Positions 3,479 through 59,987 of a DNA stretch of 64,000 bases are shown piece after piece. Every line of letters begins with the position of its first letter. The first letter of the stretch is position 1. Both the position numbers and the translations under genes were made by a program. The notes below the pieces were generated by a model. The model searched no databases. It was given only the letters and a program-made list of their open reading frames with translations, and was not told the DNA's origin. Source of the DNA: a virus; the IMG/VR virus record IMGVR_UViG_3300037010_001382, positions 1-64,000 of that record; one strand, written 5' to 3'.

Positions 3479-3540
3479 TGGCAATTATATTTTTTGTATG
3501 TATATTATTATTTATACGAAAGATACTGAAAGGTTAATTT

Positions 3541-3613
3541 ATATTATAGTAAGAAAGAGGTTCGTGTGAAATCCTTAGGTGCGTAACCCCTATGCTCTTT
3601 CTTACTATAATAT
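3541..3613 (+). ncRNA. long-stem element (19-bp perfect stem with structured head)
   Basis: atattatagtaagaaagag / ctctttcttactataatat. Confidence 0.6.
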
Positions 3614-3617
3614 TCTA

Positions 3618-3676
3618 AGTCGTTTGAGCGACTATAAATAGCAGTTTTAGGCTCAAAGCGTTCGAAAGAGGTAACT
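3618..3676 (+). ncRNA. pistol self-cleaving ribozyme
   Basis: P1 agtcg/cgact with loop tttgag pairing to ctcaaa (pseudoknot), ATAAATA linker, P2 agtt/aact, TTAGG...GCG, P3 ttc-gaaa-gag, GT cleavage site at 3671/3672; matches the pistol consensus element by element. Confidence 0.88.
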
Positions 3677-5005: not shown

Positions 5006-5039
5006 GTTTTTCTCGTTTTCCAAACAAAATGGGAGGTAT

Positions 5040-5113
5040 GTACTTGTAGCTCAGTCCGGTAGAGCAACGGCCTTTTAAGTCGTGAGTCCAGGGTTCAAAT
5101 CCCTGCGGGTACA
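5040..5113 (+). tRNA. tRNA-Lys(TTT)
   Basis: Acceptor gtacttg/cgggtac, D arm gctc/gagc, anticodon acggc-ctTTTaa-gtcgt, T arm caggg-ttcaaat-ccctg. Confidence 0.9.
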
Positions 5114-5237
5114 CTTTTATACTCTACTGATTTAATAAAAACATATTGTAATATTCTAGACACAAATATGGTTCAGTTCTTTAAAGAGGTAGCAGATAGA
5201 CGAGGTAACTCTGTATTTTAAATTATTATTTTTTAAC

Positions 5238-5271
5238 TAAAGCGTCAGAACACGATACGTTCGCAATTAAA
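5238..5271 (+). promoter_or_regulatory. conserved leader motif copy 3: TAAAGCGTCA-gaac-ACGATAC-gttc-GCAATTAAA-ATG
   Basis: Identical spacing to copy 1 (34 nt to ATG). Confidence 0.65.
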
Positions 5272-5619
5272 ATGAGTACTAACAACTCAAAGCCGTACAC
5301 AAAAGATGAGGATGCAATTATCCTCAAAGCTATGTCTGAGCATAAGACTCAAGATGATATAGCGAATGCTGTTCATGGACAAATGGACAGACCTATTAGT
5401 GGTATTAAATACCGAATAGGTATATTGAAAAAGGCAGTTAAGAATACTCTTAAAGATGCCAAGAGTGATCCTAAACCTAAAGCAGATAAAACTGCTGCTC
5501 CTAAGACATCAGCTAATAATAAGCTGCATATGAAAGTAATAGATCTCATCATACCTATATTGTCTGATGAAGAAAGATTACTAATCATTGAAAAACTGTT
5601 ACGATATGAAACAAAGTAA
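5272..5619 (+). CDS. Myb/SANT-like HTH protein
   Basis: KPYTKDEDAIILKAM...RPISGIKYRI resembles a Myb-like repeat; paralog follows. Confidence 0.55.
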   Translation: MSTNNSKPYTKDEDAIILKAMSEHKTQDDIANAVHGQMDRPISGIKYRIGILKKAVKNTLKDAKSDPKPKADKTAAPKTSANNKLHMKVIDLIIPILSDEERLLIIEKLLRYETK

Positions 5620-11637: not shown

Positions 11638-11669
11638 TTTGGCATTCTCATAATGTCTTCTTATATTTG
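11638..11669 (+). promoter_or_regulatory. Bacteroidota promoter TTTG-N20-TATATTTG
   Basis: Consensus match 4 nt before the HNH ATG at 11674. Confidence 0.8.
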
Positions 11670-11673
11670 TACA

Positions 11674-12093
11674 ATGAAGACATGTATAGAGTGTAAAATT
11701 GAACAAGAAGATGAATGTTTTAGTTTAAGAGCTAATAGAACTGATAGACGATTAACTTGTAAAAGCTGTACTAATAATGTACAGAGATTATTTCGTCAGA
11801 AGAATAATAAGCAAATATTAGTTAAACTTAAAGAAAAACGTATTAAGGTTAAAGAATATATACATAAAATAAAGCAAGAAAAAGGTTGTATTATATGTAA
11901 GGAAACTGAACCTGTATGTCTAGATTTTCATCACCTTGATCCTAACGAAAAGGAATTCGACCTAGGTAATGGTAATCAATCCAGTATCAAAAAAATCGAT
12001 AACGAAATAGTTAAGTGTGTAGTATTATGTGCAAATTGTCACAGAAAGTTACATGCTGGATTATTACAGTTGTCTAAAAAACAGTTAGAATGA
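11674..12093 (+). CDS. HNH homing endonuclease
   Basis: CIECK..CKSC; GCIICKE...LDFHH...EIVKCVVLCANCHRKLH. Confidence 0.88.
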   Translation: MKTCIECKIEQEDECFSLRANRTDRRLTCKSCTNNVQRLFRQKNNKQILVKLKEKRIKVKEYIHKIKQEKGCIICKETEPVCLDFHHLDPNEKEFDLGNGNQSSIKKIDNEIVKCVVLCANCHRKLHAGLLQLSKKQLE

Positions 12094-12805: not shown

Positions 12806-13126
12806 ATGGCAGTAAAATACCGTCACTTTTGTTGTAAATATTACAAGTATAAAATTTGTTGGAGTTATACAAGATATGTAGAGGCTATGAATGCTGATCA
12901 TAAACATTGTAAAACAATTGTAAATCCACTTGAGTGGCATTCTAAAGCACCTTTGGCTAATAAAGTTGACTTCTTAAGAATGTGGGATATGTCATCATAT
13001 CATCCTTATTGGAAAATGAAAGCTGCTATTATGTCTTATAATAGAGCAGTGCAATCTAAATCTAAAGAGAGATTAGATTATGTCAGGAAATTGTATCGTT
13101 TGAGAATTTATGTCTTTGAAAAATAA
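12806..13126 (+). CDS. hypothetical protein
   Basis: ORF track. Confidence 0.6.
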   Translation: MAVKYRHFCCKYYKYKICWSYTRYVEAMNADHKHCKTIVNPLEWHSKAPLANKVDFLRMWDMSSYHPYWKMKAAIMSYNRAVQSKSKERLDYVRKLYRLRIYVFEK

Positions 13127-13152
13127 GTGAACAATTAAAATTGTCTTTTATC

Positions 13153-14124
13153 ATGCCTGAAGAAGTACAACTGAGAAAAAGTCTCAGCAAGGATGGACTA
13201 TCAATGTCCCAAGCACAAACAGTGTCTAACTTAGCAAATCAAAATGCTACAGCTTTGACGCAAGAAATGTTGCTGTATAATAACGTATCGAAGAAGATAC
13301 AGTACAAAGGACAAGAACTTGTACAAGTAAAACCGAATCCTATTCCTGCTAATATCAGTGAGATGTTAGCGAAGGTAGGTCGCTATTATGCTTTACAAGC
13401 TTTCCTGATGGAAAACATCAAGACGAAAGACAGTTGGCTACAGGAGATAAGAAGAGCGATCTTTGTACCTTCTGAAGAGCTACAAAAAGAACAACCTGAA
13501 GCACCAGATTTGGAAGCGGCAACACTGAAAACTCCTGTTAATGAGGATTGGGGTTGGGCACAGCTATCTCCTGCTGAAATGGCTGAGTATTGGGAAGTGG
13601 AAGCGAAAGCTTCACATCTCGGACAGTTCATTCACAGAGGTGGTAAACTTGATCAGTTGCGCAAAAACCTGCCTACAATTGTAGAGCTAGAATGGCACAC
13701 TACTGGAGGTATGAATGCAGAAAGTTATCCTATTAATGTTATAGCACATCATAACATAAAGGATTTGACTGAAATGCATAATAACTTCGCTAATGAGCAC
13801 AAAACTCTGGAGCAACGTGTGAATTACTTCAAGGCTAAAGTGAAGAATTCAGTTACTGAAGAAAATGCTAACATAGCAAAAGAAAATGGTATTGCAATCG
13901 CAGAAGTTAACAAAGTTAACAATGCTAAGATGGGAGAATACCAGAAGCTGTGTATAGATTACGAAGGTAAGCGTCGTGTTGAAGAAGAAGCGTTTGAAGT
14001 TAAACGTAACGAAGATATGAAGTTCGTAGCCGCACTTCGTATTAAAGTAGATCCTCGTTTTCAGGAAACTGTTGATGAGTTGATGCCGAAAAAGAATGAA
14101 GATGATGAGGTGAAAGTAGGATAG
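13153..14124 (+). CDS. hypothetical coiled-coil phage protein (~323 aa) with downstream structured RNA
   Basis: Long ORF: GLSMSQAQTVSNL, QAFLMENIK, EAKASHLGQFIH, VNYFKAKVKN; helical composition. Confidence 0.85.
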   Translation: MPEEVQLRKSLSKDGLSMSQAQTVSNLANQNATALTQEMLLYNNVSKKIQYKGQELVQVKPNPIPANISEMLAKVGRYYALQAFLMENIKTKDSWLQEIRRAIFVPSEELQKEQPEAPDLEAATLKTPVNEDWGWAQLSPAEMAEYWEVEAKASHLGQFIHRGGKLDQLRKNLPTIVELEWHTTGGMNAESYPINVIAHHNIKDLTEMHNNFANEHKTLEQRVNYFKAKVKNSVTEENANIAKENGIAIAEVNKVNNAKMGEYQKLCIDYEGKRRVEEEAFEVKRNEDMKFVAALRIKVDPRFQETVDELMPKKNEDDEVKVG

Positions 14125-14151
14125 GCATAAGCTGATTCTTATTTTCTTTAA

Positions 14152-14426
14152 GCCCAATAGTTAGGTACAAAAATATGACATAAGTTCGCATTGCGAACAC
14201 CAATCGCTAGAAGACGGTACAGCCGTCATGCTAGCAATCCATTTTTTAGCGGAAAAAATAGAATTATATAATCTTAAATCTGCCTCTCTACAAAACTTTA
14301 AATTTCAAGAAAAGTAATACGTACACGTATTACTCAAGTCTTAGGTTTTGTCTTTGTCTTTGTGTAGAGAGGGTCTTTGATTTTGTTTTTGTTTTTGGTA
14401 TTGTCTATATTACCTAATTATTGGGT
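14152..14426 (+). ncRNA. 275-nt multibranched RNA with (TTTGNN)n repeats
   Basis: 16-bp closing stem gcccaatagttaggta/tacctaattattgggt; internal hairpins; TTTG at 14347/14353/14359 and 14376/14382/14388/14394 (6-nt period). Confidence 0.7.
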
Positions 14427-14450
14427 AACTTATTATTTTATTATTAAAAT

Positions 14451-14536
14451 GCTCTCATGGGGAAACTGGTAGACCCGCAAGACTTAAAATCTTGTTTACA
14501 GGAATGTGAGTGCAGGTTCGATTCCTGCTGGGAGCA
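14451..14536 (+). tRNA. tRNA-Leu(TAA)
   Basis: gctctca/tgggagc; caaga-ctTAAaa-tcttg; long variable arm; gcagg-ttcgatt-cctgc. Confidence 0.92.
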
Positions 14537-14544
14537 CAATTGTT

Positions 14545-15357
14545 ATGAAGAAAGAGGATGTATTATCTGTATTTGTTAGACGCATGAAGAAATTAAACAT
14601 AAACTTATCTCTTGTAGGTAATTTTCCATGGATATACATTGATGCAATTAACGGACAGAAAGTAAAAGAGAAATTTCGAGGAAATAATGGGTTTACAATA
14701 GCTTTCTATCCTATAAGAATAGGACAAGAGATGAAATTGACAGACATAAGTGAAATTATTAAACTTATTAAAAAGTATGTATGCCAGAAATAATACCACA
14801 AGACATTCAAGACAACGCTAATAAAATACTTCCTATAAATATAGTAAGTAAACATATTGGTGCAACATCTGATTTTGTACATACTTATGATGAAAATCGT
14901 ATTAAACGAGAAATATACATAAAAGGACGTACAGATGAAAGAGCGATTTGGATTCCAAGTCCTGAATACAAACAAATTACTGGTCATGATAATGTTAAGT
15001 TACATGTTGCATATGACGAAGGTTATAGACATCATGAAATGGTAATGATGAAATGGATTAGTGATTGGGACGGTCACACTAATAGTGCATTAGGTGCATT
15101 ATTAGATGAAGTATTTAAAAAATTAAAGAAAAATGCCTAAAGCAAAAAGTAGAAAGATGAAGCCATACGCTTGGACTCCAGATGGGAAAACTCCATGGAA
15201 GAAAGATGGTGGAGCTTCTGGCGAAGATGCTGTTGGACTTTCTTATAAGCGAAATAAAAAACTTAGGAAAGAAGCACAACGTCTTAATCAGATTGAAAAT
15301 AAGCGTGCAAGAAAGTATTATAAGAATCAACTCAAGAAAGAGTTAAAAGACATGTAA
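14545..15357 (+). other. three overlapping hypothetical ORFs (14545-14793, 14781-15140, 15133-15357)
   Basis: Coupled start/stop overlaps. Confidence 0.7.
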
Positions 15358-23985: not shown

Positions 23986-24058
23986 AATGAGTTAGCTCAG
24001 TTGGTTAGAGCAAGCTCTTAACCGGGCGAGGTCGGGGGTTTGAATCCCTTACTCATTA
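23986..24058 (+). tRNA. degenerate tRNA (anticodon undetermined; probable pseudo-tRNA)
   Basis: aatgagt/actcatt acceptor, canonical D arm, T loop tttgaat, anticodon arm gctc-ttaacc-gggc with a 6-nt loop. Confidence 0.65.
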
Positions 24059-24202
24059 CGAACATTAAATTTAGAATAATTATGAGGAACTTTTTAGCAC
24101 TCATTTATTGGGCTTTGATAGCTCCAAGAAGAAGGCGTAGACTGAATAGGATTGCCTCTAAGAATCGTAAATATTAATTTTTTAACAATTCAAAATAACC
24201 TA

Positions 24203-43141: not shown

Positions 43142-45580
43142 ATGTGCGGAATCGCAGGTTTCTCAGGCCATAAGGCCCTGACAAAAGAACAAGCAAAAAT
43201 TGCAGTCAACAAAATGAAGATCCTTGGATTGTTTAATCAATCTAGGGGCACTCATGGCTGTGGTTTGTATATCAATGGGACGATAATCAAGGGGATTGAG
43301 GATCTTGTAGCGAAGAAGAATACTAAAGAATTTGCAAAGTTCATTAGCGATCCTGACTTCATATGGCCTGATTTTGATGTTACTAAGGGTAATGTAATGA
43401 TATTACATACTCGTATGGCAACTCACGGAGCACATACAGAAGCAAATACTCACCCCTTTTTTATAAAATCAGAGAACCCAGTCAATAACCTTGTAGGTGT
43501 GCATAATGGTACACTTGACAATGCCTGGGAACTACTGAAAAAGTATGACGTCGATGCTGTAAAAGAGCACATTCATGTGGATAGTAAAGCGCTGTACACA
43601 CTAATTGACCGAGTTGGTCTTAATATTCTTGAAGAATATAAAGGTGCAGCTGCGTTAGTGTGGAGTAAGCCTTCAGATCCTCGTACATTGTATGCGTTTC
43701 ATGGTTCTTATTATAAGGATCGTAAAGACAAACAATTGTACGAAGAACGTCCTATGCACTGGATGAAGACGGCAGAAGGTATATACTTCTCGAGTATGCC
43801 GGAATCGCTTTTTGCGATAAGAGAAAGTGATAAACAAGAAGTTGAAACTCTTGAGTACAATACAGTATTCAAAGTTACTAATGGTAAGTTTACTACTACA
43901 AAAGTTGAGATAAAAAGAGAGAATACTAACTTAAAGCCAGAGTACACTCCTGTACCTGCTAGAGCACAAGTAATCCCTTTCAACGAGCAGCAGACTACTC
44001 CGATGAGTTCCCGCAACGCAAGAACAATCGTAGAAGACACAGAACGCACAGAGCGTATGATCCGCATGAGGAATGCGACTGCAGATAAGAAAGATAAGTT
44101 GCTTAATGTACCTAAATCTTCTCTTGTTTGGCGTGAAACAAAGCCTGCTAAAAGTGTCTCAGTACGTTTGGATGAAATTGTATATTTCTGGAAAGGACGT
44201 TATCACAGAAGTTCTGGTGATAAGTTCTGTAACGGACTGTTATACATTGCTGATCGCGGCGTAATTACAACAGATGCTGATAAAGTAGCAAGTAAGTTCT
44301 ACTTCTATGAAGGCGTACTTATGAAGAATGCTACAGCATGGGAAGCATTAGTACAAGAAGCAAACATGAAAGATTCATGGGTACATGATCTCTCGTCGAT
44401 GTATGCCTATAATATTAGTCGTTTCTCACAACATCCAGTAACCCACTTAGATTCTGAGTGTGTAGATGGCGAAGATTACTTCAGATACAGTTGGTATTTG
44501 GATGAACGTAGAGTAACATCTAAGTATCGTCCATTATTCTCTGGTCGTTGTTATCATATCGATGATGGCTTCTTAGTTACTATCATTCCTAGTAATGGGG
44601 ATGAAAAGAAAACTATAGAAGGCGATCTTGATGATATAGTTACAGCTTTGGAAAACAAGTTCACTGTATTACCTGGAGATGTTTGTTGTACTACACCTGT
44701 AGGATATACTCAAACAAGCGTATTTGACATAGTTTTTAATGATGTACCAACATTGTTTGAAACTTTGAACTATGAGGAAATGGAAGCATTATCACGCTTT
44801 GCGCATGATAAACTGTTAAACGAAAACAAGAGTAACGATCTTGAATGCGTACAGGCTGAAGTTCATTTAACCATTAAGAACGGTGTTGCTTCAAAGAAAA
44901 CAATCAGAGAAGCATTCAACGATCAGGATCATTTACTCAATGGATATTTAAAAGTTATCCTCGATGAGAAAGTTGATACTGTAGAAGCATTAGATGTTGT
45001 TAATACAACTGCTCCATTTAACACAAATGAAGACGATGATATTGATGATGATCAAGTTGGCGATTTGACTCCTGAAGAGCAAAAAGCTGCTGATGATGCA
45101 TGGGCTAAATGGGGTAATTTTCGTGGTGTAGGTTCTGGTAGGCCAAAAGGTAGTGAGGACAGACCAGGAGCTTTGGTCGATGCGGAAAGTCCCTTTCCCA
45201 ACTTGCTCGACGACGACGTTGAAACACAAAACTTTCACGTTGCCCAATTCCTCGGAACTAATGGTGACGAAGAAAAAGAAGACCACTTTGTGGAACACTT
45301 TGAAGCAGACATGGAGCGAGCTTTGGAGTTAAAGAAAATAAAACAACAAATAGCTTTTCTGAAAAGTGATAGTGATAAGGTGGAAGAAGTGATTGATGAC
45401 TTAGGTGAGATTGAGCTTAAAGCGGATGAACTTCGCTTGAGTAAAACTGATCTTGGTAAAGATTGTTCCTTTCATATTTACAAAGGATTAAGTATGCTTA
45501 AACATGCGTTGTCAAATGTGTGTGAAATACATTTTCAGGACGACTTGGTAAAGAAGTTAAATTTAGTAATACGCGCTTAA
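43142..45580 (+). CDS. class II (Ntn) glutamine amidotransferase with long C-terminal extension
   Basis: MCGIAG, RG...G, HTRMATHG, NTHPF, HNGTL, VDS, ERP. Confidence 0.9.
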   Translation: MCGIAGFSGHKALTKEQAKIAVNKMKILGLFNQSRGTHGCGLYINGTIIKGIEDLVAKKNTKEFAKFISDPDFIWPDFDVTKGNVMILHTRMATHGAHTEANTHPFFIKSENPVNNLVGVHNGTLDNAWELLKKYDVDAVKEHIHVDSKALYTLIDRVGLNILEEYKGAAALVWSKPSDPRTLYAFHGSYYKDRKDKQLYEERPMHWMKTAEGIYFSSMPESLFAIRESDKQEVETLEYNTVFKVTNGKFTTTKVEIKRENTNLKPEYTPVPARAQVIPFNEQQTTPMSSRNARTIVEDTERTERMIRMRNATADKKDKLLNVPKSSLVWRETKPAKSVSVRLDEIVYFWKGRYHRSSGDKFCNGLLYIADRGVITTDADKVASKFYFYEGVLMKNATAWEALVQEANMKDSWVHDLSSMYAYNISRFSQHPVTHLDSECVDGEDYFRYSWYLDERRVTSKYRPLFSGRCYHIDDGFLVTIIPSNGDEKKTIEGDLDDIVTALENKFTVLPGDVCCTTPVGYTQTSVFDIVFNDVPTLFETLNYEEMEALSRFAHDKLLNENKSNDLECVQAEVHLTIKNGVASKKTIREAFNDQDHLLNGYLKVILDEKVDTVEALDVVNTTAPFNTNEDDDIDDDQVGDLTPEEQKAADDAWAKWGNFRGVGSGRPKGSEDRPGALVDAESPFPNLLDDDVETQNFHVAQFLGTNGDEEKEDHFVEHFEADMERALELKKIKQQIAFLKSDSDKVEEVIDDLGEIELKADELRLSKTDLGKDCSFHIYKGLSMLKHALSNVCEIHFQDDLVKKLNLVIRA

Positions 45581-45585
45581 TAAGA

Positions 45586-47100
45586 ATGATTTCATATAAA
45601 GACGATCCGAAGCTTAAGCTTCAGGTTGTAACGACAGTTACAGGAGATAAGGAATATCGTAGGAATTGCAAGAATATTGGGCAGAAGTACTACGTAATAG
45701 ATAAGGACTGTTTCTTAGTCGAGGGAAAATGGTACAGGGTGGAGTCAGGCAAGATTGAGTTTGACCACGAAAAAAAAGTGTGGCATTTGAAGACCAAGAA
45801 TAACCTGTCAAAAGGTGTTGTTGGTATAGGCCCACTTGGGGCTTTTGTTTATGGGCAGTTCACACCAAACATTTACAACAATTGTAAAGTGTATGATAGA
45901 CTTACAGGTAACAATGTACTTGCTATTAATAGTGAAGTGTTGCAAACGAATGGCTATTTTGAAGATATCGCAACCAATATCTGGTATTATTCTAAGGAGA
46001 TGACTTCCAATCAGATTAAGAAGATGCAGAGTATCAGAAATGAAGTAAACTTTCAAAATAAAGGTTACAACATTGAAGACAATGCTGTTGAATTTGATCA
46101 GAAGAAGGAGTCATACGCGAATTTTCCAACAGTTATAAGTAAGGAAGCCCGAGCTTATGGTAAACTGCTTGGTGATACAACATTTGGTGCTGAAATAGAA
46201 ACTTCGGAGGGTAACCTTCCTAATTCTGCTCAGTACCGAATGGGATTAGTAGGTTGTCGTGATGGTAGCATTAATTCAGCGGAATGGGTAACTGTTCCTA
46301 TGGCTGGTGCTAAAGGTGTACAAAATCTTGTTGATGTTTCAGAAGTTGTTTCGGCACGTTGTAACATTGACATTAATTGTTCATTACATTATCACTTCGG
46401 TAACATACCAAAGTCGAGAGAATATCTGGTAGCATTGTATACGCTTGCGTATAAGATGCAGGATGATGTATTTAAGATGTTTCCGTACTTTAAAACGGAT
46501 CATCGTGGGATCAAAAAGAAGAATTATTGCCAGAAGTTAAAGAAGATGAGTATTTATGTTTGTAAAGATCTGTCAAAGGAAGGATACGACACTTACATCA
46601 ATGAAATGTATGTAAGGATATTTACTTTTTTATCTGATGGTACTCCGCCAGGTGAGAATGCTAATAGGAAGCGTCAACAACATCCTATTCAGAATAAGTG
46701 GGATCGCAAGTCTCGTTATTTCTGGCTGAATCTGCAGAACATGATCTTTAGTGAACGTGAGACAGCAGAGTTCAGATTGCATACTGCCACTACGAATAAA
46801 GTAAAAATGATCAGTTGGTTGTTTATGTGTAATGCAATCGTTAAGTATGCGGAAGCAAATCTTAAAGAAATCATAACCAACCCTGATAAGATTTCTTTTA
46901 CGAAAGTATTAAAGTATTATGAAAGTCACTTTCCTGATAATAAAATAGCTAAATACTTAAGCGATTATTTGATTTCGTACTACGAGAGCAGATGTGTTGT
47001 ATTTGCTAAGGATTTTGAAAGAAGTGACTTCCTGAGTGAGCATGATATTAAGAGTGATAAGAAGTTTGATTTCGTCTATGACGGTCTTAAGTTGTTATAA
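45586..47100 (+). CDS. putative amidoligase (Amidoligase_2-like)
   Basis: TFGAEIE, DGSI..AEWVT, CSLHYHF, RY..LN, TAEFR. Confidence 0.85.
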   Translation: MISYKDDPKLKLQVVTTVTGDKEYRRNCKNIGQKYYVIDKDCFLVEGKWYRVESGKIEFDHEKKVWHLKTKNNLSKGVVGIGPLGAFVYGQFTPNIYNNCKVYDRLTGNNVLAINSEVLQTNGYFEDIATNIWYYSKEMTSNQIKKMQSIRNEVNFQNKGYNIEDNAVEFDQKKESYANFPTVISKEARAYGKLLGDTTFGAEIETSEGNLPNSAQYRMGLVGCRDGSINSAEWVTVPMAGAKGVQNLVDVSEVVSARCNIDINCSLHYHFGNIPKSREYLVALYTLAYKMQDDVFKMFPYFKTDHRGIKKKNYCQKLKKMSIYVCKDLSKEGYDTYINEMYVRIFTFLSDGTPPGENANRKRQQHPIQNKWDRKSRYFWLNLQNMIFSERETAEFRLHTATTNKVKMISWLFMCNAIVKYAEANLKEIITNPDKISFTKVLKYYESHFPDNKIAKYLSDYLISYYESRCVVFAKDFERSDFLSEHDIKSDKKFDFVYDGLKLL

Positions 47101-53027: not shown

Positions 53028-53096
53028 CAAAGGTACAACAAATGTATGATTTTACCAAATAAAATTTGTGTAAGTGCAGAAATAATTCTATTTTTG
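53028..53096. promoter_or_regulatory. back-to-back Bacteroidota promoters (minus 53028-53059; plus 53065-53096)
   Basis: Both match TTTG-N20-TAnnTTTG. Confidence 0.75.
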
Positions 53097-53110
53097 CACA
53101 AAGAAAAGTG

Positions 53111-55720
53111 ATGATAGAAAACGAAGAATTATTAAAGTATTTTGACAATGACGAACTTGCCGCAGATGTGTGGAAGTCAAAATACCAAGTGAAGAATGAT
53201 AAAGGTGAAGCTCTGGAACGTACACCAGACGAAATGCACAAACGACTTGCGAAGGAGTTTGCGCAAAAAGAGTATGATAACTTACAAAAAGATCGTGTTA
53301 GTGATAACTTGTCTACTTTTGGACAAGTAATTCAAAAGAAAATAGGTTCGAAATCACTAGTTGATTTAGAGCAAATGTTCTTTGAATATTTTGATAAGTT
53401 CTCACAGATAGTGCCTCAGGGCTCTATAATGTCAATTCTAGGACATCCGACTAAGGTTGGTAGTTTGAGTAATTGCTTTGTAGTTCCTGCCCCACATGAC
53501 TCGTATGGTGGCATTATGAAGACTGATGAACACTTGTCTCAGCTGATGAAGCGAAGAGGTGGAGTTGGTACAAATTTGAATGGGTTACGTCCATCTAAAA
53601 CGTTAGTATCTAATGCAGCAGGCACTTCTACAGGAGCTGTCTCGTTTATGCCTAGATATAGTAATACAACAAGAGAAGTAGCACAGGATGGTCGTAGAGG
53701 AGCATTAATGCTACTTTTACACTGTTTACATCCAGATATATTTGATTTTGTAAAGATCAAGAAAGATAGAACAAAAGTAACAGGTGCTAATATTAGTGTT
53801 CTGCTTACTGATACTTTTATGTCAGCTGCTAAAGCTGATGAGGATTTTTACTGCAGATTTCCTATAGATCAATCTATAGGTGGATTTGAGCCACCAGAAT
53901 ACAATACTTTAGTGGAAACATCTAAAGGAAAGTATATAATGAGAATTAAAGCTAAGGAGCTTTTTGATCTTATTATTGAGATGGCACATGAAAATGCAGA
54001 ACCAGGTATAGCATTTATAGATCGCATTATAGACTTCTCACCTGATGGAGTTTATGAGATGTATAAGGCTATTGCTAGTAATCCTTGTGGTGAGCAATGG
54101 TTACAAGCATATGATTCTTGCAGATTGCTAGCAATTAACTTATTCTGTGTCGTTAAGAATCCTTTCACTGAAAGAGCATTTGTAGATTATGAAAAGTTAT
54201 ATGAAGTAGCATATATGCAACAGCGATTAGCAGATACACTTGTAGACCTAGAGATAGAGTATGTAGGTCGTATTATTGCTAAGATTGATTTAGATCCAGA
54301 ACCTGAAGATGTTAAGCGTGTTGAGAAAGAATTATGGCAGAATGTACTAAAGACAGCGCAAGCAGGTCGTAGAACAGGATGTGGATTTACAGCACTTGCA
54401 GATATGTTAGCAGCATTGAATCTTAAGTACGATAGTAAACAAGGTATTGAAATCATTGAGGAAGTATGCAAAGTAAAAATGTGTGCTGAATTAGATTGCT
54501 CTATCGACTTAGCTATCTTAAGAGGAGCTTTTGAAGGTTGGGATCCTAAAAAAGAATTTGAATTTAAAGGTCTGCAAAAGAATGGTAAACATTATTCTGG
54601 AAAGAATAAGTTTTATCAGATGTTAATAGACAATTTTCAAGAACAAGTACTTAGGATGTACGCTTATGGACGTCGTAATGTATCTTGGTCTACTGTAGCT
54701 CCTACAGGAACAGTGTCGATTATGACACAAACATCAAGTGGACTCGAGCCGCTCTTCTTACCATACTATATGCGTAGGAAGAAAATTAATCCTTCTGATA
54801 AACACTCACGTGTAGATTTTACGGATCAGAATGGCGATCAATGGCAAGAGTTTCCAATAATGCATCCTAAATTCAAGGAATGGATAGAAATGCGCCTTGG
54901 TACACAATCAAAGATTGAAGATCAAACAAAAGATGATCTTGATAATCTTTTCAAGATATCGCCTTGGTATGCATCAACTGCAAATGATATTGACTGGACA
55001 AAGCGTGTAGAAATACAAGCTATTATTCAGAAATATACAACTAATGCAATATCATCAACTATTAATTTACCAAATAATGTCACGAAAGAAGAAGTTGCGA
55101 GCATTTATTGGAGGGCTTGGGAGTTGGGGCTCAAAGGAGTTACTGTTTATCGAGATGGATGTCGTACTGGTGTATTGGTCTCTAATGAAGCATCATCCGT
55201 TACGAAAGAAGTTGCGTTCTCTCAAAAAGACGCAGCGAAAAGGCCTACGTCGCTTGATTGTGAAATACATGCAGTCAAGGTCAAAGGAGTAAGTTACTCT
55301 GTTATTGTATCAGTATTAAATGATCATCCTTACGAGGTTTTCATTTTGTCTGATATGGTACTTGCTTGTTCTAAAGGCGTTGTTACTAAGGAAAAGAAAG
55401 GTTTATACAATTTATATAATGTAGATGGATCTTTATGTTCATCAGATATAGGTAGTAAAATAACAGAAGAAGAAGCAGCTATTACAAGATTACTTTCTAC
55501 GAGCCTGAGACATGGTACGAATGTTAGATTCTTGGTTGAGCAGCTAAACAAAACAGAAGGTTTGATGGTAGGATTTAGTAAGGCAATTGCACGTTGTCTT
55601 AAGAAATATATACCAGAAGGCACTACTTCGAAAGAAGAATGTCCTGAATGTAAGCAACCAGCGATGGTTTACGAAGAAGGATGTAAGAAGTGTAAGAATT
55701 GCGGTTATTCAAAATGCTAA
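53111..55720 (+). CDS. nrdJ: class II (AdoCbl-dependent) ribonucleotide reductase
   Basis: LSNCFV, RRGGVG, GRRGA, NPCGEQ, APTGTVS, GLKGVTVYRDG; C-terminal Zn ribbon; no beta subunit nearby. Confidence 0.88.
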   Translation: MIENEELLKYFDNDELAADVWKSKYQVKNDKGEALERTPDEMHKRLAKEFAQKEYDNLQKDRVSDNLSTFGQVIQKKIGSKSLVDLEQMFFEYFDKFSQIVPQGSIMSILGHPTKVGSLSNCFVVPAPHDSYGGIMKTDEHLSQLMKRRGGVGTNLNGLRPSKTLVSNAAGTSTGAVSFMPRYSNTTREVAQDGRRGALMLLLHCLHPDIFDFVKIKKDRTKVTGANISVLLTDTFMSAAKADEDFYCRFPIDQSIGGFEPPEYNTLVETSKGKYIMRIKAKELFDLIIEMAHENAEPGIAFIDRIIDFSPDGVYEMYKAIASNPCGEQWLQAYDSCRLLAINLFCVVKNPFTERAFVDYEKLYEVAYMQQRLADTLVDLEIEYVGRIIAKIDLDPEPEDVKRVEKELWQNVLKTAQAGRRTGCGFTALADMLAALNLKYDSKQGIEIIEEVCKVKMCAELDCSIDLAILRGAFEGWDPKKEFEFKGLQKNGKHYSGKNKFYQMLIDNFQEQVLRMYAYGRRNVSWSTVAPTGTVSIMTQTSSGLEPLFLPYYMRRKKINPSDKHSRVDFTDQNGDQWQEFPIMHPKFKEWIEMRLGTQSKIEDQTKDDLDNLFKISPWYASTANDIDWTKRVEIQAIIQKYTTNAISSTINLPNNVTKEEVASIYWRAWELGLKGVTVYRDGCRTGVLVSNEASSVTKEVAFSQKDAAKRPTSLDCEIHAVKVKGVSYSVIVSVLNDHPYEVFILSDMVLACSKGVVTKEKKGLYNLYNVDGSLCSSDIGSKITEEEAAITRLLSTSLRHGTNVRFLVEQLNKTEGLMVGFSKAIARCLKKYIPEGTTSKEECPECKQPAMVYEEGCKKCKNCGYSKC

Positions 55721-58190: not shown

Positions 58191-59987
58191 GTGAGACAGA
58201 TCCAAGTATTGAATCAAACTGACTTCTACAAAGTAGGTCACCATCCTATGTACCCTGGAGGTACTACTAGGATTTATAGTAATTTAACCCCGCGCAAATC
58301 GAGAGAGAAAGGTGTAAATGAAGTAGTTGTTTTTGGGATTCAATACTTCGTTCTGGAGTATTTGATTGAACAATGGAACTCCAACTTCTTTCACACGCCA
58401 TTAGGCCACATTGCGAAGGAAGTGAAACAGCAGAGGCTGGCCCGTTATAAACGTATGATGGATAATACTCTCGGAAAAGATACTGTGAAAACAGAACATA
58501 TTGAGAAGCTTTGGGATTTAGGTTATATGCCTCTTAAGATTAAGGCTCTAGCTGAAGGTACTCTATGTCCGATAGGAATTCCTTGTTTAACTATTACGAA
58601 TACTGTAGATCATGCATTTTGGTTGGTAAATTATCTGGAAACTATTCTGTCTTGTACAGTATGGCAACCGATGACTTCAGCTACAAAAGCATTACAGTAT
58701 CGTAAGATACTCGAAAAATATGCATTACAAACTACAGGATCTATTCAAGGAGTTCAATGGCAAGGTCATGACTTTTCTATGCGTGGCATGTCTAGTCTTG
58801 AGTCTGCTTGCACGAGCGGAGCTGGGCATTTGCTTTCTTTTACTGGGACCGATATAATACCTGCTATTGAATTTCTTGAGCAGTATTACGGTGCAAATGT
58901 GGAAGAAGATCTTGTTGGAGCTTCTGTTCCTGCTACTGAACATTCCGTTATGTGTATGGGTCTTAAGGATGGGGAAATAAATACATTTGAGCGTTTGCTT
59001 GATTTGTATCCTACAGGTATCTTATCTGTAGTCTCTGATACTTGGGATTTGTGGAACGTAGTAAAGAAAGGTGGTATTTGCGACCAGTTAAAAAGTAAGA
59101 TCTTAGCTAGAAATGGCAAGCTTGTAATTCGTCCTGATTCAGGAGATCCTGTTGATATCATTTGTGGACAAGAGATAGATGATATAAAAGCAGAAGATAT
59201 TGATTCTGCAAAACTTTGGATGAAAGATTTACTAAGGCAAAAAGTGAGAGAGGAAACTCCTCATGGAGAAGCCGGTGATCCAAATCCTAGTGCTACTTAC
59301 AAGTTTCAAGGTAAGTACTACAAGATCACACTGGAAATTGAATGGAATCGCTATGATAAGCAATTTTACTTTATAGATGGATGTACCATAAAATCATTTG
59401 AAGAAGTTGAAGCTACACCTGCAATGAAGGGTGTAATTGAATGCTTATATGATGTGTTTGGCGGTACAAGATCGACTGAAGGATATATTGAGCTGATTGA
59501 TAAAATTGGCGCTATATATGGCGATTCTATAACTGAAGACAGAGCAGAACGTATCTGTAGTCGCTTAATGGCTAAAGGCTATGCTTCTACTAATGTTGTG
59601 TTCGGCATAGGTTCATTTACTTACCAGCATAATACTCGCGATACTTTTGGTTTTGCCATGAAGGCTACCTATGGTGAAGTTGCTATTGAATGTGGATGTG
59701 GAGAGGGTTATCAAAATCCTACCTGCTTACAGAATGGTAATGGTCGCATCTGTACTGAAGCTCGTGAGATCTTCAAGGATCCTATCACTGATTCAGGCGA
59801 AAAGAAGTCTGCACGTGGCTTGTTGCGTGTAGATCGTAATGAGGAGGGTAAAGTTACTCTCTACCAACAGCAGACGAAAGAACAAGAGGAAGGTGGTTTA
59901 TTACAGACTATATTCCTTGACGGTAAAATGGTTAAAACATTTACGTTAACAGAGGTTCGTGAGAATCTCAAAAATGCTACAAAATAA
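58191..59987 (+). CDS. nicotinamide phosphoribosyltransferase-like protein (NAMPT/Namat)
   Basis: TDFYKVGH, HDFSMRG, PATEHS, SVVSDTWD, IRPDSGDP, IYGDSIT, FGIGS, KKSARG. Confidence 0.92.
   Translation: MRQIQVLNQTDFYKVGHHPMYPGGTTRIYSNLTPRKSREKGVNEVVVFGIQYFVLEYLIEQWNSNFFHTPLGHIAKEVKQQRLARYKRMMDNTLGKDTVKTEHIEKLWDLGYMPLKIKALAEGTLCPIGIPCLTITNTVDHAFWLVNYLETILSCTVWQPMTSATKALQYRKILEKYALQTTGSIQGVQWQGHDFSMRGMSSLESACTSGAGHLLSFTGTDIIPAIEFLEQYYGANVEEDLVGASVPATEHSVMCMGLKDGEINTFERLLDLYPTGILSVVSDTWDLWNVVKKGGICDQLKSKILARNGKLVIRPDSGDPVDIICGQEIDDIKAEDIDSAKLWMKDLLRQKVREETPHGEAGDPNPSATYKFQGKYYKITLEIEWNRYDKQFYFIDGCTIKSFEEVEATPAMKGVIECLYDVFGGTRSTEGYIELIDKIGAIYGDSITEDRAERICSRLMAKGYASTNVVFGIGSFTYQHNTRDTFGFAMKATYGEVAIECGCGEGYQNPTCLQNGNGRICTEAREIFKDPITDSGEKKSARGLLRVDRNEEGKVTLYQQQTKEQEEGGLLQTIFLDGKMVKTFTLTEVRENLKNATK

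Follow-up and report, generated by a model that had tools for sequence, protein, structure and literature searches.

What role is served by a large structured RNA that carries short repeats at an exact six-base period and lies directly behind an unnamed protein gene? The question is raised by a 64,000-nucleotide (nt) stretch of viral DNA (hereafter the window: positions 1 to 64,000 of IMG/VR record IMGVR_UViG_3300037010_001382, from a complete genome of 126 kb). In this window gene X, which encodes an unnamed helical protein, is followed on the same strand by a structured RNA of ~320 nt (14112-14430, + strand). A preliminary description, made from the letters alone, had pointed to an open reading frame (ORF), a long closing stem with four inner hairpins, and two runs of TTTG or ATTG units with a TAG between them, and had proposed a protein-RNA system; every one of these elements is present in the sequence where it was placed. 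Sequence analysis established the structure of the RNA, its strand, selection on its repeats, its coupling to X, and tRNA and RNA-repair neighbourhoods. That a real, conserved RNA is coupled to X we regard as nearly certain. We put at roughly 0.5 the probability of a fuller reading, in which X and the RNA together would form an undescribed RNA-protein particle that serves tRNA or RNA repair.

Structure and strand of the RNA

The plus strand of the region (14125-14450) folds with a minimum free energy (MFE) of -86.7 kcal/mol, as against -57.2 ± 4.7 kcal/mol for 100 shuffled versions, none of which folded as well (z = -6.3). The minus strand is likewise stable (z = -7.3), and because both strands fold well, folding alone cannot assign the strand. 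Relatives were collected through proteins homologous to gene X of the window (13153-14124, +), and the RNA sequences of 39 of them were aligned with MAFFT. At the 44 pairs of helices P1, P2, P5 and P7, 93.3% of 1704 alignment cells hold standard pairs; when the partners were slid by 1-3 columns, only 40.8-51.3% of cells did so. Changes on both sides occur at 42 of the 44 pairs, and the covariation score is 0.738 versus 0.145-0.211 in controls, with none of 500 shuffles reaching any of these measures. The covariation counts come from the MAFFT alignment, and the slid-partner control is the more trustworthy measure. Taken singly, P1 shows compensatory changes at 12 of 12 pairs, P2 at all 15 aligned pairs (92.7% of cells paired) and P5 at eight of nine aligned pairs (96.9% of cells paired), while seven of the eight pairs of the family helix at the P7 position covary. 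The conserved, compact structured RNA that had been suspected here is thus borne out, both by the covariation and by the stability of the fold.

The strand follows from the non-Watson-Crick cells. G-U or U-G fills 137 cells and A-C or C-A only 18, an excess indicating that pairing has been selected on the strand of X and hence in plus-strand RNA. Formally, the element is a plus-strand single-stranded nucleic acid, which we read as RNA. This ratio also bears on the idea of a DNA-level element, such as an origin, a single-strand initiation site, or an iteron or promoter array. Such an element could account for the good folding of both strands, its T-rich phased repeats would recall iterons, and TTTG is the core of Bacteroidota promoters, from which a decoy for sigma factor and RNA polymerase had been conceived in the preliminary description. 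However, the 137 to 18 ratio reflects pairing on the plus strand only, a 6-nt period does not match the helical repeat of DNA, and the element accompanies a single protein gene both in phages and on the chromosomes of bacteria from two phyla. The promoter-like sites of the region, 11 compared with 8.0 ± 3.1 in shuffles, do not exceed chance. The decoy in particular is disfavoured, as the tracks are kept in Moraxella (Pseudomonadota) and there is neither a mimic of an open promoter of the 6S type nor an Rfam match. We consider a role at the DNA level very improbable.

The architecture of the family (Table 1) was derived from the MAFFT alignment of the 39 relatives and a consensus fold. MAFFT misaligned the row of the window at P5 and P7, and the helix coordinates of the window were read directly from its sequence and fold. 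P1 encloses the stop codon of X in the window (14122-14124) and holds in its loop an inner 2-bp GC/GC helix (14125-14126/14131-14132), which recurs in the loop consensus AUA-(A/G)GC-ANAA-GCU-GAU. The preliminary description had the closing stem and the hairpins right but drew the element too small, leaving out this conserved hairpin astride the stop codon. A CUUUA(U/A) linker connects P1 to the closing stem P2, which has 15-16 bp in relatives and 16 bp in the window. The variable region that follows contains one to three hairpins in relatives; those of the window are gttcgc/gcgaac (14184-14198) and cgctag..gacgg/ccgtc..gctagc (14205-14235). P5, which reads cctctctaca/tgtagagagg in the window (14283-14292/14363-14372), has the family consensus CGCUUCUCUUC/GAAGAGAAGG, and most members carry a small hairpin, UGAGAUAGAACUCA, between its 5' strand and P7 (agtaatacg/cgtattact in the window, 14313-14334). 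The 3' side then runs in a fixed order: track 1 as GAGACUUAG-(NNUUUG)x3, the P5 3' strand, track 2 as GUC-(UUUGNN)x5-CUAUAU, and the P2 3' strand.

Table 1 Features of the gene X locus in the window
Feature	Coordinates	Strand	Basis and details
Gene X, unnamed helical protein family, partner gene of the RNA	13153..14124	+	ORF, 323 amino acids from ATG
P1 hairpin	14112..14146	+	10-bp stem 14112-14121/14137-14146; loop AUAGGCAUAAGCUGAU, conserved
P2 long closing stem, 5' strand	14152..14167	+	MFE fold and covariation
Variable region, two plain hairpins	14184..14235	+	Fold; alignment
P5, 5' strand, CCUCUCUACA	14283..14292	+	Pairs with 14363-14372
P7 hairpin, AGUAAUACG-UACA-CGUAUUACU	14313..14334	+	Sequence and fold; family helix covaries
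Track 1: CAAGUCUUAG, then three UUUG units	14335..14362	+	UUUG at 14347, 14353, 14359; exact 6-nt period
P5, 3' strand, UGUAGAGAGG, between both tracks	14363..14372	+	Covariation
Track 2: GUC, four UUUG, AUUG, conserved GUCUAUAU	14373..14410	+	UUUG at 14376, 14382, 14388, 14394; AUUG at 14400
P2, 3' strand	14411..14426	+	MFE fold and covariation
tRNA-Leu(UAA), neighbour, 24 nt past P2	14451..14537	+	tRNA search and Rfam

A wider set of 98 distinct family RNAs revealed one elaboration of the variable region. In two of them (L002, about 3500-3590, and L136) it bears a tRNA-like branch, attached via the anticodon stem, in which a T arm and a D arm accompany an acceptor stem closed by a triloop. 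No T-arm-like hairpin was found in the window RNA and no tRNA look-alike in the other 96 family RNAs.

The element belongs to no described RNA family that our searches could find, in agreement with the preliminary description. Rfam 15 at E ≤ 10 returned only the tRNA and chance-level rows between 13900 and 14700 of the window, and the element itself drew no match in the window, in 20 related phage loci or in nine bacterial loci. Nor did we find a description of the RNA or the protein in the full-text literature on phage structured RNAs, RNA repair and damage, or large RNAs, a search that lay outside supplementary tables. PMC10690425 reports 8,495 candidate RNAs from IMG/VR, and its supplementary tables may list the present element.

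The repeat unit of the two tracks is UUUR plus two nucleotides; three units stand before and five after the P5 3' strand, with the TAG at 14365-14367 falling between the two runs. The pattern TTTRNNTTTRNNTTTR has three overlapping matches in the 64 kb, all inside the element, where 0.43 are expected, and one of 100 shuffles reached three. The 39 aligned sequences show no change at the central U of any of the eight units, and in the 98 distinct RNAs the central U of each unit is kept in 95-98. The fourth base of the unit is a purine in 97-98 of the 98 for track 1 and in 96-98 for the five units of track 2, the second spacer base is never G, and the C-U-A of the CUAU that follows track 2 is present in all 98. 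Neither track contains a single gap in any of these RNAs. The spacer between track 1 and P5 varies in length by 1-3 nt among relatives, and indels of 1-3 bases separate the two tracks and come after track 2. The six-base period of the repeats, already noticed in the window, is thus conserved under strong selection. Both tracks are apparently unpaired. A column-pair scan of the 98 RNAs found no covarying partner of the track columns, a weak result, as even P5 and P7 were missed in its alignment, which was based on a hidden Markov model. In the MFE fold of the window, track 2 pairs with an A-rich segment (~14254-14266); this partner is not conserved in relatives, and we rejected the pairing as incidental.

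Might the tracks instead be coding, for a short peptide with hydrophobic residues in alternation (Phe-X repeats)? Taking TTT as a codon leaves track 2 open in all sequences and places the invariant T at the second codon position. The openness, however, is a trivial product of TTTR, and in 61 of the 98 RNAs the only open frame offers no ATG, GTG or TTG from its upstream stop to the track. The frame is broken by the 1-3-base indels between and after the tracks, and the flanks covary as RNA helices. We give the peptide next to no credence, and the repeats are, as first supposed, non-coding. A further early idea, that the repeats serve as a template, is disfavoured by the lack of a reverse transcriptase among the recurrent neighbours and the 29 neighbouring ORFs scanned (Pfam or PHROGs).

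Coupling of the RNA to gene X in phages and bacteria

Homologues of X number at least 1428 at E ≤ 0.001 in a large protein collection, and all those listed are unnamed or called 'hypothetical protein'. Among viral contigs, at least 209 stretches encode a relative of X; the best 80 of these 209, together with one more, gave 81 loci, in which the DNA 3' of each X stop was examined with a profile built from the window RNA. The RNA is present full-length in 64 of the 65 distinct downstream sequences. In the 65th (L049, which gave matches identical to those of L061) it lies ~590 nt further on, past an inserted ORF. Thus, the downstream stem and repeats, whose absence from homologous loci would have spoken against the system first proposed, were found in every one of the 65 distinct phage loci that offered enough sequence, and in three contigs that end early (L022, L077 and L082) the start of the RNA is visible. 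In six loci (L012, L014, L027, L030, L049 and L061) ~110-590 nt separate the X stop from the RNA. Four of these loci clearly carry an inserted ORF, and in all six the whole RNA, P1 included, has shifted together.

The coupling also holds in the reverse direction. A pattern that drew solely on invariant track 2 bases found at least 119 stretches of viral contigs, and the 80 listed comprised 10 chance matches, which gave no score with the RNA profile, and 70 real RNAs. X lies directly upstream of 68 of these 70 RNAs and 5 kb away from one, and the last (L124) sits at a contig edge, so that X is upstream in 69 of 69 testable RNA-first loci among the matches listed. In the 68 adjacent loci the distance from the end of the X match to track 2 is 241-461 nt, and once 854 nt. 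The sole separated pair (L117; RNA at 790-1050, -) involves a compact RNA that keeps P2, P5 and both tracks and has no P6- or P7-like hairpins; it stands behind a 193-residue ORF and others, and the same strand carries X 5 kb upstream. Protein neighbours are far less constant, the commonest being shared by at most 24 of the 81 phage loci. As there is no widely shared protein neighbour, the unit is X plus the RNA. Fused forms of X were not found at E ≤ 0.001 among proteins of 567-2000 residues (alignment A3), although this was a weak search.

A search of sequencing runs for 13100-14600 of the window listed none of RNA. No promoter-like or terminator-like site separates X from the RNA in the window, and we infer on this ground that the two are made from one transcript. 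The same arrangement would suit a 3' untranslated region that acts in cis on the X mRNA only, as a stabiliser, a 3'-end processing signal or a feedback operator, and has no job in trans: the RNA comes directly after X on the same strand, P1 includes the stop codon in the window, and no promoter-like site of the RNA's own is seen there. Yet the RNA, with its 320-420 nt, five or more covarying helices and eight phased repeats that do not vary, far exceeds what known stabilisers need. Moreover, the displacement of the whole RNA, with P1, as a unit in six loci, and the RNA 5 kb from X in L117, are hard to square with a purely local role, which we judge quite unlikely.

Distant homologues of X are encoded in bacterial genome contigs (12 Moraxella loci, five Capnocytophaga loci, a Tannerella metagenome-assembled genome (MAG), an Ignavibacteriota MAG and others) and are 21-24% identical to the window protein (alignment A3). 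In nine bacterial loci the phage RNA profile matches the track region downstream of X. The same architecture follows X in Moraxella, Capnocytophaga and Tannerella, with P1, P2 and P5 covarying. These bacterial RNAs have their own signatures, namely an invariant GACCUAU in the P1 loop, tracks of four units (track 1) and about three (track 2), and a CUGCG end. The persistence of the pair across phyla at 21-24% protein identity points to a direct functional link between X and its RNA. In Capnocytophaga stomatis, X, the RNA and a terminator-like hairpin stand between a peptidase S46 gene and a phosphoglycerate-mutase-type gene, housekeeping flanks that indicate a site outside any prophage; by reading of the sequence, a hairpin with a T run occurs there only after the RNA. 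The bacterial subfamily extends across named Capnocytophaga and Moraxella species and is annotated as 'hypothetical' or 'uncharacterised' throughout.

Three of the bacterial loci have peculiarities of their own. The X homologue of Moraxella lacunata NCTC10359 contains one in-frame stop (L099, 2666-2668), which may reflect read-through, an error of sequencing or a pseudogene of this strain; the gene is intact in M. oblonga and M. macacae, and intact forms of 290-292 residues exist in M. lacunata and M. bovis. The Ignavibacteriota MAG carries tandem X paralogues (L103, 2-694 and 858-1703) followed by a 600-nt gap, in which the phage RNA profile gave no score. A DUF805 RNA motif (RF03081, 62.6 bits; L090, 1274-1344, +) lies ~1.1 kb upstream of the Tannerella homologue.

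Protein X and its predicted dimer

X matches no Pfam, PHROG or NCBIfam family at curated cut-offs; its ORF also has a longer form with a TTG start (13141-14124 in the ORF list). A Pfam scan of X at E ≤ 1 gave only LMP and crAss001_48, both below cut-off, and DUF7873 was matched neither by X at E ≤ 1 nor, in the 25 families displayed out of 64, by 26 family members at E ≤ 5. A sequence profile search of the PDB with X returned nothing below E = 0.1. The AlphaFold 2 model of X (mean predicted local distance difference test score (pLDDT) of 84.7) is helical and is built from a helix/β-hairpin/long-helix unit that occurs twice, followed by a C-terminal helical hairpin. The model of the Capnocytophaga ochracea homologue (pLDDT 91.5) agrees with it. 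Searches with the whole window model, rather than single domains, using Foldseek against PDB and BFVD and VIA-align, gave generic helical or coiled-coil rows, as did a Foldseek search of PDB with the C. ochracea model; the best values over both models were Z 7.4 and E 0.016. BFVD held one uncharacterised homologue of X, and the ESM Atlas contained only clusters named 'hypothetical protein' at a template modelling score ≥ 0.4. Eleven residues are invariant from phages to bacteria: E150, A153, G157, F159, I160, H161, R170, H216, N224, K227 and A228 (window numbering).

An oligomeric partner protein had been suggested for the repeats at the outset, and the structure prediction favours one. A two-copy model of X scored 0.44, compared with 0.13 for the best of three controls, and passes a mark that is reached by 20 of 30 solved one-chain pairs (homodimers) and by one of 23 solved monomers. 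The runs agreed in at least 97% of contacts, with a partner pLDDT of at least 84, and residues 140-159 and 192-200 take part in the modelled, symmetric interface. The model supports, but does not prove, that X pairs as a symmetric dimer.

RNA-repair neighbourhoods, possible role and comparable systems

The phage pairs tend to reside among tRNA genes. Of 64 distinct phage loci, 45 have tRNA genes within 2.5-kb flanks; these genes total 217, without exception on the same strand. Five tRNAs are encoded in the window between 5040 and 16239. Neither this tRNA setting nor the RNA-repair genes described below figured in the preliminary description. The adjoining tRNA was considered as a conserved maker of the RNA's 3' end and rejected, as only three of 62 relatives have a tRNA that begins no more than 80 nt from the RNA end. 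In two loci (L008 and L003), ARAGORN reported odd tRNA-like structures with unreadable anticodons that start 3-4 nt before the end of the RNA profile, and two phage loci of the set have a tRNA with the anticodon UUA, of suppressor type. One locus has a Hatchet ribozyme (L051, 1990-2126, +; 81.5 bits) ~375 nt upstream of the X start.

Genes of RNA repair adjoin the pair in two lineages. One phage clade (11 of the 81 loci, of which several are nearly identical) has a calcineurin-type metallophosphoesterase gene after the RNA, and in the six loci with a long enough flank a P-loop kinase (AAA_33) and an RNA ligase come next. This ligase combines an N-terminal OB domain (PF21189) with a PF09414 nucleotidyltransferase domain; it was found at 376-389 residues in two of five records searched, the other three consisting of two at or near a contig end and one complete genome without the ligase. 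Just upstream of X, 10 of the 12 Moraxella loci encode a ligase of the T4 Rnl1 type (PF09511) together with a phosphoesterase that is 33-37% identical to the phage phosphoesterase. The different ligase families and gene orders of the two lineages mean that two ligase families have become linked to the pair.

These neighbourhoods enter into the reading to which we gave about even odds. X, as a symmetric dimer or a higher oligomer, would hold the RNA. The UUUR tracks that flank P5 would be phased contact sites, either for X or for a client that X presents, with one track per protomer or one unit per subunit. During infection, the particle would then assist the maintenance, repair or protection of tRNA or RNA, as an accessory platform for end-healing and sealing.

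Several observations weigh against this reading of a repair particle. X has no RNA-binding domain or fold that Pfam or the fold searches could recognise, and several residues conserved across the family (150-159) fall within the dimer interface of the model and for that reason need not be RNA contacts. The tight linkage of X and RNA would fit a 3' untranslated region equally well. The repair link is confined to one phage clade and one bacterial genus, and the Capnocytophaga pair stands among housekeeping genes. No linked ligase, kinase or phosphoesterase was detectable in the 126-kb genome of the window (PF09511, the phage phosphoesterase, tblastn), although the PF09511 genome search, which matched none of 14 control genomes either, says little. 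Finally, tRNA clusters also house other phage RNAs to which no role has been assigned, so that this context is not specific.

A more specific version of the repair particle is speculative, and we hold it to be doubtful at best. A protein oligomer would measure single-stranded RNA in exact six-base steps, and UUUR would copy U33-U34-U35-R36 of the anticodon loops of tRNA-Lys(UUU) and tRNA-Gln(UUG), as bait for host anticodon nucleases or to align broken tRNA ends for the healing and sealing enzymes encoded nearby. If true, this would be a Ro60-independent platform for RNA repair or counter-defence common to phages and bacteria. Should the broader reading hold, a widespread RNA class and its protein family would be added to the few large non-coding RNAs of bacteria and phages for which a dedicated partner is known. 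An unusual feature of this class, its eight six-base units, which are invariant and exactly in phase, would offer a handle for biochemistry. The placement in tRNA clusters and the two independent RNA-repair neighbourhoods would tie the pair to the ways in which phages and bacteria protect or mend tRNAs under ribotoxin attack. As Capnocytophaga and Moraxella carriers can be cultivated, the hypothesis is open to ordinary genetics.

Among known systems, Ro60 (Rsr) with its Y RNAs, including YrlA (RF02553; the rsr-yrlBA-rtcBA operon), is the closest working analogue, although it is unrelated. As in the present pair, a protein gene has an adjacent same-strand RNA in bacteria and phages. According to PMC4201824, YrlA lies no more than 4 kb from Ro60 in 254 bacterial species and in 22 phages, and PMC7824862 links Ro60-Y RNA to genes of RNA ligase and repair. 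The likeness extends to this repair-gene linkage and to the tRNA-like branch in two of the 98 present RNAs. By contrast, X has no match to TROVE/Ro60 in Pfam (X at E ≤ 1; 26 members, families shown), the present RNA is unmatched by RF02553, and the window RNA lacks a tRNA-like domain with T arm and D arm. Y RNAs are not known to have phased hexamer tracks.

GOLLD (RF02032) and ROOL, which PMC12286853 describes as large ornate RNAs of phages and prophages, often near tRNA islands and without an assigned role, resemble the present RNA in being phage-borne and in their tRNA-island habitat. They are RNA-only cages with no identified protein partner, whereas the present RNA is always coupled to X, is much smaller and has no Rfam match, though the same search found GOLLD in L010. 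That match is full-length (5028-5442, +; 306 bits) and lies, with tRNAs around it, ~1.7 kb downstream of the X-RNA pair of that phage.

An analogy with TRAP was part of the preliminary description. The trp leader recognised by TRAP (MtrB) contains 9-11 (G/U)AG triplets with 2-3-nt spacers, and in this leader, with its phased GAG/UAG triplets, as in CsrB-type RNAs, short single-stranded motifs at fixed spacing are read by an oligomeric protein. The present tracks appear similar in offering short single-stranded motifs at a fixed short spacing. They differ in having UUUR at a strict 6-nt period and in lying inside a large structured RNA, not a leader, and X matches neither TRAP nor CsrA.

The RNA could also be itself the active agent on a host factor, as a sponge or decoy whose UUUR tracks titrate a nuclease or a binder of single-stranded U-rich RNA or as an RNA-only assembly like GOLLD and ROOL, with X as its chaperone or simply co-expressed. 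The phased motifs do resemble the multi-site sponges of CsrB and the TRAP leader, and the tRNA-island habitat, known for GOLLD and ROOL from PMC12286853, is shared with GOLLD itself in L010. Against this stand the retention of X and RNA together across phyla at 21-24% identity and the resident chromosomal pairs of Capnocytophaga and Moraxella, where a phage counter-defence decoy would make less sense. We consider an RNA acting on a host factor unlikely, though still to be taken seriously.

The repair enzymes near the pair recall T4 Rnl1/Pnkp and bacterial Pnkp, since a phosphoesterase, a P-loop kinase and an RNA ligase (phage clade) or a ligase and a phosphoesterase (Moraxella) adjoin it. Those systems, reviewed in PMC7824862, differ in that they are not known to have a dedicated structured RNA or an X-like protein; in addition, none of those enzymes was detected in the window phage.

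In type III toxin-antitoxin systems of the ToxIN kind, tandem RNA repeats of ~36 nt lie upstream of the gene of an endoribonuclease toxin. The present RNA is downstream, its repeats are of 6 nt and lie within a structured RNA, and X has no matching family (PADLOC was not searched).

A few further features of the window were recorded. Its early region is rich in RNA elements and includes a Pistol self-cleaving ribozyme (3618-3676, +; 53.6 bits against a gathering score of 34.5). An ORF for an HNH endonuclease (11653-12093, +; phrog_2255, E = 3e-34) sits amid small ORFs just upstream of tRNA-Asn and X. A tRNA-like gene at 23986-24059 (+) has an anticodon that ARAGORN left unnamed ('aa' at position 35) and scores 46.1 bits with Rfam tRNA. 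Further along, 43142-47100 (+) encodes a glutamine amidotransferase-domain protein (812 residues) followed by an Amidoligase_2 protein (504 residues), 53066-55720 a class-II-like ribonucleotide reductase, and 58191-59987 a NAMPT-type phosphoribosyltransferase.

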